Shown one piece after another: positions 6,701 through 16,298 of a stretch of 64,000 bases of DNA (the stretch's first letter is position 1; every line of letters starts with the position of its first letter). The position numbers were made by a program, and so were the translations under genes. The stretch spans positions 7,872,001-7,936,000 of the forward strand of contig CM000151.3 in assembly GCA_000004695.1 (NCBI GenBank), read 5' to 3'. The notes beneath the pieces are model-generated. The model did not search any database, was not told the DNA's origin, and was given only the letters and a program-made list of their open reading frames with translations. The DNA is from Dictyostelium discoideum (Eukaryota).

Positions 6701-6782
6701 CGACATCGGCAGGGTTCGAACCTGCGCCCCCGAAGGGATCTGATTTCTAGTCAGACGCATTAGACCACTTTGCTACGATGTC
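6701..6782 (-). tRNA. tRNA-Ser (anticodon AGA), class II with a long variable arm, no intron
   Basis: Reverse complement: GACATCG TA GCA AAGTGGTCTAA TGC G TCTGA CTAGAAA TCAGA TCCCTTCGGGGGC GCAGG TTCGAAC CCTGC CGATGTC G. The 7-bp acceptor stem pairs, the T-arm is GCAGG/TTCGAAC/CCTGC, the anticodon loop is CT-AGA-AA, the A box is TAGCAAAGTGG and the B box GGTTCGAACCC. A T5 Pol III terminator lies 5 nt downstream on the - strand (6692-6696). Confidence 0.9.
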
Positions 6783-6813
6783 TTTGAAGTTTAGAATGAA
6801 CGTCGTATCTCAA

Positions 6814-6829
6814 ATTGTATGAAATTTAA
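6814..6829. repeat. Target-site duplication copy 1, (a)ttgtatgaaatttaa(g), 32-47 bp upstream of the tRNA-Ser gene
   Basis: The same 15-16-mer recurs at 9595-9610 and 15343-15358, each at a TRE5-A boundary. Confidence 0.8.
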
Positions 6830-7454
6830 GATTATTTCATTTTTCATATAAAAAAGACTTAAAAAACAAATAAATAAATAAATAAACTATTTTAAAAAGC
6901 CATCTTTTTACTTTATTGTAATTTATTATTTGTTTCGTTTTGAGAATTTTGCGTAGCAAAATTTTCAAAAAAAAAGCAAAAAATAATCAGATCGAAAAAA
7001 ACAAACAACAACAACAATCTCTTTTTTTGATTATTTCATTTTTCATATAAAAAAGACTTAAAAAACAAATAAATAAATAAATAAACTATTTTAAAAAGCC
7101 ATCTTTTTACTTTATTGTAATTTATTATTTGTTTCGTTTTGAGAATTTTGCGTAGCAAAATTTTCAAAAAAAAAGCAAAAAATAATCAGATCGAAAAAAA
7201 CAAACAACAACAACAATCTCTTTTTTTGATTATTTCATTTTTCATATAAAAAAGACTTAAAAAACAAATAAATAAATAAATAAACTATTTTAAAAAGCCA
7301 TCTTTTTACTTTATTGTAATTTATTATTTGTTTCGTTTTGAGAATTTTGCGTAGCAAAATTTTCAAAAAAAAAGCAAAAAATAATCAGATCGAAAAAAAC
7401 AAACAACAACAACAATCTCTTTTTTTGATTATTTCATTTTTCATATAAAAAAGA

Positions 7455-7460
<6 letters not shown>
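6830..7460 (+). repeat. Tandem array of TRE5-A A-modules (3 full + 1 partial, ~199 bp each)
   Basis: Repeating unit attatttcatttttcatataaaaaagacttaaaaaacaaataaataaataaataaactattttaaaaagccatc...caatctctttttttg. Confidence 0.85.
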
Positions 7461-7505
<45 letters not shown>

Positions 7506-7580
7506 GGAACCAAGTTAATTAGAAAATTTCCAGATTTTTAACTTTTTAAAGAAAAATAAAAAAGATAGAAAGAAAATAAA

Positions 7581-8915
7581 ATGAAAATCACAAACAACAC
7601 CACAAATATTAAGCAACACAAATGCCTACAAAAAATAAGCGAAATTGTGGATAAAACTCAATTAAAAAAAAAACAATTCAAATACGTCATAAACATCAAT
7701 CACGAACCAGACGATAAAATAAAAAAAGATTTAGAAAAAAGTTTGGACAAAAAAGATGTTTTAATCAAAAGTAATAATACATTCAAAATTCTCACAGACA
7801 GTATTAGTACAGTAATCTATTTTGTAAATATGTTTGATGCAGAATTAAAAGGACAATTTATAACCACTATAAGACCAAAAAATATGTATACAGATTTTGA
7901 TTGGTATAAATCACTCACAGAAATAGAATGGGTAATAGAAAATGAAGGATGTAAACTAATTAAATCAGAAATTAAAGGCGAAACTCTAATTATCAAAACA
8001 GTGAAAAGAGTCGTAGAAGAATTTGACACTATCATTGAACTAGACAATCTAACATTAATTGGACACTCCAACAAAGGATGGAGAGATCAAACCTCATTAC
8101 CAGAAAATCAAGAAGAAAACAAAAATAAAAAACAATCAGATGAACAACAACCACAATCTACATCAGAACAAATACCAAAACAAGGAAAAAGAACAATCAT
8201 TATCCCACCAATCACATCCTCATCTAATGATAAAACATTTATGGCCCTAGATGATACAGCTCAAAAGGTAATAGAAGCATCACTAGAAAACGTAGATGAA
8301 CTAACAAGAATAGAGAATGAGATCAATACACAATCGATAAACAATCAAGAAATTAAAACAAAATCAGAAAAACCTATCGAACCACCATCTCCATACAATA
8401 CACCAATAAAACAACACGGCGAAACAAAGGGACTAACAACGGAAGAAAAACTTAGAGAAGCAAATGATATCTTCGACTTCACCAGCCCAAACACTGATGC
8501 AATAAGAAAAATAGAATTCCCACTTTCAATCCCTTCAAATCAATGGTTCTTCTCCTCTCCAATAAAACATATCATGAGTTTCAGCCCAACCTATGGTACA
8601 CCATCGAAAATTATCGATTCACCAAGTAAATTGTTAAACACACCAAAAAAGAAACAACAAGACAAAACAAACAAGACCAACAAAACACCAGTCAAACCAA
8701 AATTGGGTGAATATGGACAAAAAAGCATAAAAACAAAAATGGATGAAGATATAGACAACTTCAACAAGGAAATTCTAAAACAAATCAATAAATCAAAAAA
8801 CCCCACAAACACACAAGACCAACAACACAATGAACAAAGTAAAGATCAGTTAGAAGACAAAATAAACCAGAAACTTCAAAAGGTAGATAAAAATCTACCC
8901 CAAATAAAACTATAA
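7581..8915 (+). CDS. TRE5-A ORF1 protein
   Basis: 444-aa ORF, ~99 % identical to 301-1635 and 10048-11382. Confidence 0.85.
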   Translation: MKITNNTTNIKQHKCLQKISEIVDKTQLKKKQFKYVININHEPDDKIKKDLEKSLDKKDVLIKSNNTFKILTDSISTVIYFVNMFDAELKGQFITTIRPKNMYTDFDWYKSLTEIEWVIENEGCKLIKSEIKGETLIIKTVKRVVEEFDTIIELDNLTLIGHSNKGWRDQTSLPENQEENKNKKQSDEQQPQSTSEQIPKQGKRTIIIPPITSSSNDKTFMALDDTAQKVIEASLENVDELTRIENEINTQSINNQEIKTKSEKPIEPPSPYNTPIKQHGETKGLTTEEKLREANDIFDFTSPNTDAIRKIEFPLSIPSNQWFFSSPIKHIMSFSPTYGTPSKIIDSPSKLLNTPKKKQQDKTNKTNKTPVKPKLGEYGQKSIKTKMDEDIDNFNKEILKQINKSKNPTNTQDQQHNEQSKDQLEDKINQKLQKVDKNLPQIKL

Positions 8916-9211
8916 AGAAAAACACAATAAGAATAGGTGTTTGGAACGTCCAAGGATCCAACACCATCCAATCTGCCAGCATAATAAACACCGTTTTAGA
9001 CAACAACAAGCTGGACGCAGCACTTCTAACTGAAACAAATATAAAAACAAATAAAATTTACTCAATAAATCAACAATATAAAAACAAAATAACACACCAC
9101 GCACCAATTGATAAAACAGGACAAGGGGTGTCACAAATCATCATCAACACCCGCAATAGAACTTCCTAAACATCTCAAAAAATACAATAATTCACTCAGT
9201 ACTTTCTATAA

Positions 9212-14816: not shown

Positions 14817-14887
<71 letters not shown>

Positions 14888-15311
14888 GGAACCCAAGTTA
14901 ATCAGAAAATTTCCAGATTTTTAACTTTTTAAAGAAAAATATAAAAAATAGAAAGAAAATAAAATGAAAATCACAAACAACACCACAAATATTAAGCAAC
15001 ACAAATGCCTACAAAAAATAAGCGAAATTGTGGATAAAACTCAATTAAAAAAAAAACAATTCAAATACGTCATAAACATCAATCACGAACCAGACGATAA
15101 AATAAAAAAAGATTTAGAAAAAAGTTTGGACAAAAAAGATGTTTTAATCAAAAGTAATAATACAATTCAAAATTCGAAACAAAAAAAAAAAAAAAAAAAA
15201 AAAAGTAAACTAACCCCTCTTTTAGAGACCCTGTAAAAAAAAAAAAAAAAATAAAATAAAATGAGATCTAACATCTCAAGGAGAAGCAAATAATAATTGC
15301 GTTATCCAATT

Positions 15312-15342
<31 letters not shown>

Positions 15343-15345
<3 letters not shown>

Positions 15346-15358
15346 TATGAAATTTAAA
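15343..15358. repeat. Target-site duplication copy 3 (ttgtatgaaatttaaa)
   Basis: Immediately after the terminal A-run of copy 3. Confidence 0.8.
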
Positions 15359-15360
15359 TT

Positions 15361-15535
15361 GTAAAAAACTATAAATAAAATGAGATCTAGCATCTCAAGG
15401 AGAAACAACCAATAATTACGTTATCCAAAAAAAAAACAAAAAAATTATATGAAATTTAACATTTTAATGAGATCTAGCATCTCAAGGAGAAGCAACAAAT
15501 AATTGCGTTATCCAATTCAAAAATAAAAAAATCTA
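15361..15535 (+). mobile_element. Two partial TRE5-A C-module remnants, each followed by a degenerate copy of the TSD (attatatgaaatttaa at 15441-15456; tctatgaaatac at 15531-15542)
   Basis: aaatgagatctagcatctcaaggagaaacaaccaataattacgttatccaaaaaaa and aatgagatctagcatctcaaggagaagcaacaaataattgcgttatccaattcaaaaa. Confidence 0.65.
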
Positions 15536-16298
15536 TGAAATACTTATAATATTTTGTATACTTGTGTGACCCTTGAACACACATAAATAATTAATAATAA
15601 ATTATAAATAATATTATATCTCTATATAATATTATATGTAATAAAGTTTTATTTATAAGTTTTGTTTGTGCACAATTTGGAATAAAACAACAACGAAATA
15701 TTTTTATTTTATTTTACTATTTATACTAAAATTAATTTTACTAAAGAAACCGTTGGTAAAATTTCTGAGAATAAAGTAAGAATATTGTATTTGTTAACGT
15801 CTTTTCAGTTACAGACTATTTCCATATTTGTATTTTACCAGGGATAAAAACTTTATAAATTAATTTATGTCCCTTAATTATTCTCGATTATTACAAAGAT
15901 TCAAATTCATCACGTAGTCAGGCCCTTTTTCTTTCAGAATAATTTATTCATACATAAAATATACTTACCTCTTCTAATTGTATTTAATATAATAAGATTT
16001 ATTTGATCACAACTTTATTTTTATCTTATTTTTACTATTTATGCGATGTATTTTCTGAAGGCCTAATAACAAATAGTAGAGAGGATTTAGAAAAATCCCA
16101 AACATCATCTCCATCAGCTTGAAAGATTTAGTTAACACTGGAACTCTCCCCTCCTCACAGTATCAAACCTTATACAATAAATCACGTCCCTAAACACTCT
16201 CTTTAAAAAAAAATTAAATAAATAAAAAAAAAAAAAAAAATTCTTTTTATTTGTGATTTTTTTAATTATTGTTACAAACTTTTTTAAGCTTTTTTTTT

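Follow-up and report, generated by a model that had tools for sequence, protein, structure and literature searches.

The window analysed here is a 64 kb stretch of Dictyostelium discoideum DNA, the sole tRNA gene of which is a tRNA-Ser(AGA) on the minus strand at 6701-6782 (ARAGORN; Rfam tRNA, 61.5 bits). This gene serves as the Pol III landmark of the locus and its 5' end is at 6782. Upstream of it lies an array of four copies of the retrotransposon TRE5-A, all on the plus strand and oriented so that the 5' end of each element faces that of the tRNA gene, namely a non-autonomous TRE5-A.2, a full-length TRE5-A.1 and two stubs that consist of the C-module only. The tRNA 5' end is separated by a 32-bp spacer (6783-6814, positions -1 to -32) from the first copy of a 15-nt site, TTGTATGAAATTTAA, which occupies positions -33 to -47 (6815-6829, plus strand); the TRE5-A.2 starts with an A-module at 6830, 47 bp from the tRNA gene. 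Exact plus-strand matches to the 15-mer are found again between the TRE5-A.2 and the TRE5-A.1 (9595-9609) and after the TRE5-A.1 (15343-15357). The expected number for the 64 kb is 0.01, three or more exact copies were present in 0 of 100 shuffles, and no exact copy was detected elsewhere in the window. A fourth copy, TTATATGAAATTTAA, with one mismatch, follows the first stub at 15445-15459 (plus strand), and a partial fifth one, TCTATGAAAT, lies distally at 15532-15541 (plus strand). The latter runs into the original flank, ACTTATAAT..., as judged from the sequence and a paralogous flank, and is read as the distal remainder of a first, shorter duplication. Thus, the preliminary description of this locus was accurate concerning the types, order and orientation of the elements, the diverged motif beside each stub and the three identical copies, which it had placed correctly to within 1 nt.

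Each of the site copies 2-5 is established directly 3' of the A-run that closes a TRE5-A 3' end, hence four elements are accompanied by five copies of one locus-specific sequence (n+1), without nesting. The duplication measures 15 nt around the TRE5-A.2, the TRE5-A.1 and stub 1, and approximately 10 nt around stub 2; it could extend by up to three A's 5' of the 15-mer, which the A-tails would mask. Published target-site duplications of TRE5-A are 10-16 bp long (PMC9012585), and de novo insertions occur 47 ± 3 bp from the tRNA, often at the same exact position (PMC5391098). In the supplementary table of the latter work, SerAGA is named nine times, genes SerAGA-1 and SerAGA-2 included.

The TRE5-A.2 (6830-9594) was delimited by repeat and alignment analysis and by its relatives elsewhere. 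It bears 3.3 A-module units of 199 bp (6830-7483), an ORF1 of 444 aa (7581-8915), the protein of which is identical at nine or more other loci, and a fragment of the 3' B-module (9278-9501), followed by the C-module and an A12 tail. TRE5-A.2 has been defined by the loss of much of ORF2 together with 72 bp of the BC region, giving the structure AB-ORF1-BC (PMC3159450). Both deletions are present here: the BC region lacks 72 nt (26 + 24 + 22), and position 9152 joins the equivalents of TRE5-A.1 positions 11619 and 14753. The junction of the ORF2 deletion is identical, at 1872, in a second TRE5-A.2 of the window, and it is shared with six other loci as well, being a family-wide feature.

The TRE5-A.1 (9610-15342; alignment and ORFs) begins within an A-module. 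An A60 run (9908-9967) precedes ORF1 (10048-11382) and ORF2 (11385-14816), the latter being open over 1143 codons. After an A65 run comes the 3' B-module (14884-15180), then an A24 run, a 22-nt spacer, the C-module and an A30 tail (15313-15342). The B-module at 9968-10258 recurs at 14884-15175 with 99.7% identity. This structure, AB-ORF1/ORF2-BC with an A-tail, together with the 199-bp A-module repeats in the array, agrees with the description of TRE5-A (PMC3159450). ORF2 matches the Pfam reverse transcriptase RVT_1 (E-value 3e-33), flanked in the expected order by Exo_endo_phos (residues 9-186, E-value 0.021) and zf-RVT (residues 942-998, E-value 0.019), both of them below the Pfam cut-offs. 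The odd 3' end of this element, in which an A-run, a second B-module, a further A-run, the 22-nt spacer and the C-module succeed each other, was also considered as a captured stack. This was set aside because the A-run adjoins the B-module with no intervening spacer, and because units devoid of a C-module would not be mobile (PMC3159450). The preliminary description had also pointed to a full-length ORF2 source lying directly beside a non-autonomous copy. The ORF2 is indeed open, but the adjacency carries no special meaning, since TRE5-A.2 is mobilised in trans genome-wide and the nearest relatives of this TRE5-A.2 reside at other loci.

Both stubs, characterized by alignment, a C-module census and their hairpins, retain the two C-module hairpins, an A-tail (interrupted in each of them) and a site copy at either end. 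Stub 1 (15358-15444, plus strand) is 87 nt long and represents an older C-module variant, while stub 2 (15460-15531, plus strand) has 72 nt and an irregular 5' junction (CATTTT...). They were originally regarded as elements decayed to C-module remnants. Most likely, they were truncated at their 5' end upon insertion, because a site copy abuts the 5' end and an A-tail with a site copy closes the 3' end, which is the signature of 5' truncation. Deletion of the 5' part is typical of TRE5-A, and 5'-truncated de novo insertions have been documented (PMC3159450), a further point against later loss. Had the stubs been long copies whose 5' parts were deleted afterward, their place as the oldest members of the array would fit, as would the substitutions in their C-modules and A-tails and the divergence of the flanking site copies. 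However, each deletion would need a breakpoint within a few nucleotides of a site copy, twice at this locus and again at three other loci (L004, L005, and L013), at a chance which we estimate at ~0.1% per stub if breakpoints fell at random over at least 2.7 kb of element; we consider such decay quite unlikely. Solo C-module stubs with local duplications were found by the census at L005, L013 and probably L014, and C-modules of the old variant were always distal to young copies (window, L004, and L014). The proposal that divergence would order the stubs by age did not hold: over ~53 nt, stub 1 shows 3-7 differences from the C-module consensus and stub 2 only 1-2, numbers too small to be significant, and stub 1, though younger by position, is the more diverged one.

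Like the 5'-truncated (‘dead on arrival’) copies of non-LTR retrotransposons such as L1, the stubs retain only the 3' end recognised by the reverse transcriptase and an A-tail between site duplications, and the irregular 5' junction of stub 2 resembles those of 5'-deleted TRE5-A copies recovered with the TRE-trap and bsr systems (PMC3159450). Unlike the usual truncated non-LTR copies, their truncation is extreme (72-87 nt).

The two long copies are independent insertions that belong to different sublineages. Comparison over 1650 nt revealed 26 substitutions between the TRE5-A.2 and the adjacent TRE5-A.1, against 1-3 between this TRE5-A.2 and those at six other tRNA loci, and 4-6 between the TRE5-A.1 of the array and TRE5-A.1 copies elsewhere. 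BLAST searches of the array were run with A or T runs of 12 or longer masked. Moreover, the 5' ends are unlike, with 3.3 A-modules in the one copy and a start within an A-module in the other. This divergence, the deletions that define TRE5-A.2 and the dissimilar 5' ends indicate that the array is no local duplication. Head-to-tail repeats parted by identical short sequences would also be expected from unequal recombination, or if a single element had been duplicated in tandem along with its site copy, most of ORF2 being lost from one of the copies later, and the stubs with their site copies do constitute a tandem repeat of 87 nt (88% matches). Against it, the long copies are each within 1-6 substitutions of elements elsewhere and display neither hallmark of tandem duplication (units mutually closest, shared end points), the TRE5-A.2 deletion junction is not of local origin, and even the 5' ends of the two stubs differ in alignment. 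For the long copies, the one-block duplication that the preliminary description had named as its alternative is thereby contradicted; a duplication origin is possible for the stub pair only, and as an account of the array we regard it as very improbable.

The order of the array was also recovered from a second public assembly, GCA_054883475.1, in which a 4.9-Mb contig presents the TRE5-A.2, a site copy, the TRE5-A.1, a site copy, a stub, a site copy, a stub and the flank; the stretch of this assembly that was compared starts inside the TRE5-A.2, with the tRNA and site copy 1 outside, and the material possibly derives from the same laboratory lineage. Mis-joining of repeat copies during assembly is hardly conceivable as the source of the tandem, even though TRE5-A is multi-copy with long A-runs and the assemblies differ in homopolymer lengths and at seven single bases of the long copies (one in the TRE5-A.2, six in the TRE5-A.1), given the identical order in the independent assembly and the locus-specific sequence held at the junctions, which other copies could not have supplied. 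Neither an empty site nor an allele with a smaller number of copies was found; only one other assembly contains the locus, in the same layout. A metagenome scan with 19 nt of spacer sequence beside the tRNA gene returned two contigs of 57-58% G+C, otherwise unlike the window, which are chance bacterial matches.

Stacks that reuse one site copy are not confined to this gene, as they occur at no fewer than five of the 11 other TRE5-A/tRNA loci surveyed. The stack at a tRNA-Val gene (L003) comprises three copies, that at a tRNA-Thr gene (L004) at least six, with C-module stubs outermost, and that at a tRNA-Gly gene (L008) four, each having its own locus-specific duplication in n+1 site copies; L002 and L016 bear stacks with locus-specific duplications as well. 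This recurrence supports the earlier claim that the copy nearest to the tRNA is duplicated each time and that older elements are pushed outward. Likewise, repeated integration ~47 bp upstream of one tRNA-Ser(AGA) gene, as originally proposed, is upheld by long copies of different sublineages, by their unlike 5' ends and by the recurrence of the pattern elsewhere.

We are therefore largely confident that the array arose by four successive, independent events of target-primed reverse transcription at one tRNA-Ser(AGA) gene. TRE5-A finds its targets through the Pol III transcription complex assembled on a tRNA gene. The distance from the gene at which the endonuclease of ORF2 cuts would be fixed for either strand; in the last three events the bottom strand would be cut at -32/-33, priming the cDNA, and the top strand at -47/-48, with positions and strands assigned according to the standard model and to where the site copies begin and end. 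Each of these three events would duplicate the tRNA-proximal site copy and place the newcomer between the tRNA and the residents, so that older copies shift outward intact. The order of all four events is deduced from stacking logic rather than from observed intermediates. The oldest event would have left stub 2 (72 nt) with a duplication of ~10 nt, TTAA being added at its irregular 5' junction, and the second one stub 1 (87 nt) with a 15-nt duplication now including TTAA. The third would be the full-length TRE5-A.1, and the fourth the non-autonomous TRE5-A.2, mobilised in trans and presumably the youngest insertion of the array. The stubs would have formed when reverse transcription aborted shortly after it had passed the C-module hairpins, which the enzyme requires.

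The 15-mer is probably not original target sequence throughout. All 15 nt were duplicated, but the last four bases (TTAA) were probably not in the original target and derive from the 5' junction of the oldest insertion. This is suggested by a paralogous flank (L009, 12529), the single one compared and 72% identical over 121 nt, which reads ...GTGAAAT followed by ACTTACAATATT, against ...ATGAAAT followed by ACTTATAATATT in the window; in L009 GAAAT is directly succeeded by ACTTA, without TTAA in between. If so, the original empty site would read ...CAAATTCTATGAAATACTTATAAT..., without TTAA, rather than ...TATGAAATTTAA....

Successive TRE5-A insertions forming a stack are an already known phenomenon, called typical in the literature. 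In the TRE-TRE tandems of D. discoideum, which share the ~47 bp position, the gene-facing 5' end and the 10-16 bp duplications (Spaller et al. 2017, PMC5391098; Barth et al. 2022, PMC9012585), newcomers settle between the tRNA gene and the resident ‘without integrating into each other’, and tagged TRE5-A hit again 91 of 98 occupied tRNA genes, often at the identical position (PMC5391098; PMC9012585). The present locus does not differ from them in kind; it is a deep case, with four events, five site copies and every junction kept. Current understanding is thus unchanged, as such tandems are familiar to specialists and have been made experimentally. The landing pad survives, each new copy regenerating the target site beside the tRNA gene, and the locus offers a readable example of how, in a haploid genome dense with genes, a retrotransposon reuses a safe pad. 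The identical 15-nt duplications of three events would constitute a natural record of the precision of the cuts, and a succession of sublineages is recorded, from the old C-module variant through TRE5-A.1 to TRE5-A.2.

A comparable use of Pol III genes as repeated landing pads, with insertions piling up upstream, is seen in the clusters of Ty1/Ty3 elements and solo LTRs at yeast tRNA genes (reviewed in PMC5911963). These are LTR elements that employ an integrase and generate 5-bp duplications, and their order becomes scrambled by LTR recombination. Unlike them, the TRE5-A stack appears target-primed, reuses the same 15-nt site and keeps its order.

Several of the outermost stubs, here and at other loci, start within a few nucleotides of GACCCTG, the point at which the BC junction of TRE5-A.2 lies as well; relative to the minimal C-module segment, several stubs at different loci begin within a few nucleotides of its first position. 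They might derive from a discrete short C-module RNA, a SINE-like substrate, rather than from random abortive reverse transcription. A wider reading would take the stacks as time-ordered archives in which both cuts are set by distance, whatever the sequence; TTAA, once added at the first insertion, could thus have been carried into each of the three later duplications. The same reading has the stubs arising from the short C-module RNA, and the TRE5-A delivery machinery may occasionally bring other RNAs to the landing position. Taken jointly, these propositions seem to us rather unlikely.

As a separate observation, a search of 300 kb of other TRE5-A loci returned no 5S rRNA copies in addition to the one in a neighbouring stack of the window (4941-5243), which is 5'-truncated, A-tailed and established at the same kind of site.

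The tRNA-Ser(AGA) gene (6701-6782, minus strand) is the sole tRNA gene in the window, and a stack of TRE5-A copies is established upstream of it, i.e., rightward of the gene and read on the plus strand. A 32-bp spacer separates the gene from the first copy of the duplicated target sequence (site copy 1, TTGTATGAAATTTAA, 6815-6829), which is followed by a TRE5-A.2 (6830-9594) with a 199-bp A-module repeat at its start and a C-module plus A12 tail at its end. The exact 15-mer recurs at 9595-9609 and, behind a 5.7 kb TRE5-A.1 (9610-15342), at 15343-15357. Further out are two C-module pieces with A-rich tails, stub 1 (87 nt, 15358-15444) and stub 2 (72 nt, 15460-15531), separated by site copy 4 (TTATATGAAATTTAA, 15445-15459) and bordered by site copy 5 (TCTATGAAAT, 15532-15541), which continues into the unique flank. 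The three exact 15-mers (0.01 expected in 64 kb) bear out the repeated site copies and elements of the preliminary description, with coordinates within a base. The serial stack is real and its main interpretation is right, with two details corrected, namely that the stubs are read as 5′-truncated at birth and that the 15-mer is probably not entirely target sequence.

Target-primed integration, as usually modelled, starts with a cut at the A-tail side of the element. Judged by the site boundaries, synthesis would be primed from a bottom-strand cut at -32/-33, with the top strand cut second, at -47/-48 (relative to the tRNA 5′ end), while the duplication may extend to up to three A's preceding the 15-mer. 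Each event would regenerate the proximal site copy and all sequence between it and the tRNA, so that the same target would be presented to the next event and the newcomer placed between the tRNA and the resident copies. This agrees with published TRE5-A and TRE-TRE work, in which de novo insertions lie 47 ± 3 bp from the tRNA gene, frequently at exactly the same position, already occupied tRNA genes are re-hit (91/98) and TRE-TRE tandems arise “without integrating into each other” (PMC5391098; PMC9012585). The serial-stacking phenomenon is therefore already in the literature.

We read both stubs as 5′-truncated when inserted, because each directly abuts a site copy on the 5′ side and, on the 3′ side, closes with an A-tail followed by another site copy, and both keep the two C-module hairpins, which sit within the 3′ 87-nt segment, essential for retrotransposition (PMC3159450). 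The same reading draws on solo C-module copies, each with a local duplication particular to it (window 5116-5231; L004, L005, L013 and probably L014, TRE5-A/tRNA loci of a second assembly, GCA_054883475.1) and on the 5′ deletion typical of TRE5-A, whose target junctions are often irregular (PMC3159450). With its 87-nt period (88% matches), the pair might instead stem from tandem duplication of one stub, though the unlike 5′ ends of the two stubs argue against this. Deletion of longer elements, the decay to C-module remnants proposed earlier, is unlikely, as it requires a breakpoint at the site boundary in every case. Besides being read as truncated insertions, both stubs share the C-module variant GCAAC... 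in place of GCAAAT..., and stub 1 additionally carries AAAAAACTAYAAATAAAATGAG; the same variants are seen among the distal members of the L004 and L014 stacks, as well as in truncated copies of greater age. Old-variant copies are distal to young ones in all stacks seen, with which an older age of the outer copies is consistent, divergence alone being insufficient to order stubs 1 and 2. C-module-only copies start within a few nt of GACCCTG at window 5116 and 15358, L005 13855, L013 2996 and L014 12471, which hints at a preferred 5′ end; this start point is the A.2 BC deletion junction.

The assumption that the whole 15-mer was original target probably does not hold against the paralogous flank of another TRE5-A stack (L009). 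That flank reads (A)n CTTCTGTGAAAT|ACTTACAATATTTTTTTATATTTGTGACCTTGAACACACA, and the outermost junction in the window reads TCTATGAAAT|ACTTATAATATTTTGTATACTTGTGTGACCCTTGAACACACA; on this comparison, the original site most likely ran from ...TTCTATGAAAT directly into ACTTA, without TTAA. The first event (stub 2) would have duplicated ~10 nt, its 5′ junction supplying the TTAA at the 15-mer end, and for the following three events the cut would have moved outward by 4 nt, to -47, with TTAA being copied along. We infer this origin from one paralogue. The flank past the stack (15532-15660) is a dispersed repeat, 72% identical to L009 12529-12652 and with a weaker copy at L006 8894-9013. An AT-rich palindromic segment of ~70 bp is 97% identical yet inverted between the window flank and L009, and terminates in the DGLT-A LTR terminal motif TGTAATAAAG.

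Concerning the two long elements, the 9610-15342 copy has the AB-ORF1/ORF2-BC layout of published TRE5-A.1. Its ORF1 encodes 444 aa and, immediately behind it, ORF2 is an open frame of 1143 codons with a strong reverse-transcriptase match and sub-threshold endonuclease and zinc-finger matches in the expected order; the B-module is present twice (99.7% identity). The 6830-9594 copy has no counterpart of TRE5-A.1 positions 11620-14752, shares this ORF2 deletion junction with a third copy at the window start (1-2311), and misses an additional 26+24+22 = 72 nt between B- and C-modules, a loss identical to the second A.2-defining deletion (PMC3159450). By sequence, it is a TRE5-A.2. Its 3′ B-module (9278-9501) is 92-93% identical to that of A.1 with a shortened start, a type also found at L003, L004, L005, ~11680-11910; in other A.2 copies (window 2000-2220, L002, L006, L008) it is 99% identical, and A.2 can accordingly be divided by 3′ B-module form into two sublineages.

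On sequence comparison, the two long copies are independent arrivals of two active sublineages, because they are closer to copies elsewhere and their start points are unlike. Over 1650 aligned nt, TRE5-A.2 differs from its TRE5-A.1 neighbor at 26 positions but shows only 1-3 differences to the A.2 copies that lie upstream of six further tRNA genes; TRE5-A.1 differs from A.1 copies elsewhere at 4-6 positions. The ORF1 protein of TRE5-A.2 is identical in at least nine other copies. TRE5-A.2 starts with 3.3 A-modules and TRE5-A.1 within an A-module. These substitution counts and unlike 5′ ends uphold serial integration upstream of one tRNA-Ser(AGA), the main reading of the preliminary description. 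Mis-assembly is unlikely, since GCA_054883475.1 shows elements and site copies in the same succession from within the A.2 copy outward, with differences in A-run lengths and a few bases. Contigs of that assembly carry Dictyostelium snoRNAs, which, together with the TRE5-A features and an exact DGLT-A primer-binding site near the stack, mark the organism as Dictyostelium discoideum. Local duplication followed by deletion is contradicted by the divergence pattern and the different 5′ starts. Across window 7458-27793, A/T homopolymers are consistently shorter in the second assembly (by up to 32 nt), and 24359-27107 holds a cluster of ~40 substitutions, mostly A/T, reflecting a strain difference or assembly error.

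At eleven other TRE5-A/tRNA loci drawn from the second assembly, the distance between tRNA gene and TRE5-A 5′ end is 44-51 bp, and stacks that reuse a site copy particular to the locus are common. At L003 (tRNA-Val), three copies of GATTAATCACCAAT surround one A.2 and one A.1; at L004 (tRNA-Thr), at least six copies of GTTTTGTAATT(T)AA surround A.1, A.2, truncated A.1 and, outermost, C-module stubs; L008 (tRNA-Gly) has four copies of ATATATATAATTTTA, and L002 and L016 are additional such stacks.

A second small stack is located at 4941-5243. Here CCTCTTTTGCAT, at 5104-5115 and 5232-5243, borders a C-module stub (5116-5231), and proximal to this stub, reusing the site sequence, is a 5′-truncated, A-tailed 5S rRNA copy (4950-5103) flanked by CCTCTTTTG at 4941-4949 and 5104-5112. 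The initial ~18 nt of the 5S copy are incompatible with helix I, its 3′ trailer measures 16 nt and its tail is A32. It resembles a processed 5S retro-copy brought to a TRE5-type site; 300 kb of other TRE5-A loci held no additional 5S copies. An internally deleted DGLT-A LTR retrotransposon (2312-4916, minus strand) has 100% identical LTRs, the left one without its first 19 nt, and its 632-aa ORF matches protease and the integrase C-terminus but not reverse transcriptase. TGGCGACATCGTCTTTC, the primer-binding site published for DGLT-A, is present exactly at 4630-4646 (reverse complement), 2 bp from the LTR. The third TRE5-A.2 (1-2311), whose 5′ part lies beyond the window start, abuts DGLT-A LTR position 20 with its A-tail. 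This arrangement fits a Pol III gene outside the window, a minus-strand tRNA just to the left, because the distances agree (~15 bp + ~32-35 bp, ~47 bp total). DGLT-A would have inserted ~15 bp upstream of this putative tRNA and TRE5-A.2 later ~47 bp upstream, by then within the DGLT-A LTR; if true, the distance rule would here override “not integrating into each other.”

Finally, 5539-6149 is the 3′ end of a 5′-truncated TRE5-A-related element, with no tRNA gene beside its 5′ end. Identity to TRE5-A is 67% for the ORF2 tail of this element and 79% for its C-module, the level published for TRE5-C. It is possibly bordered by a 12-nt duplication (GATCGGAAATAA / GTTCGGAAATGA). The start nucleotide (ATTACATTCAAG) is identical to that of a copy at ~12021 of L008, suggesting a defined short form rather than random truncation.
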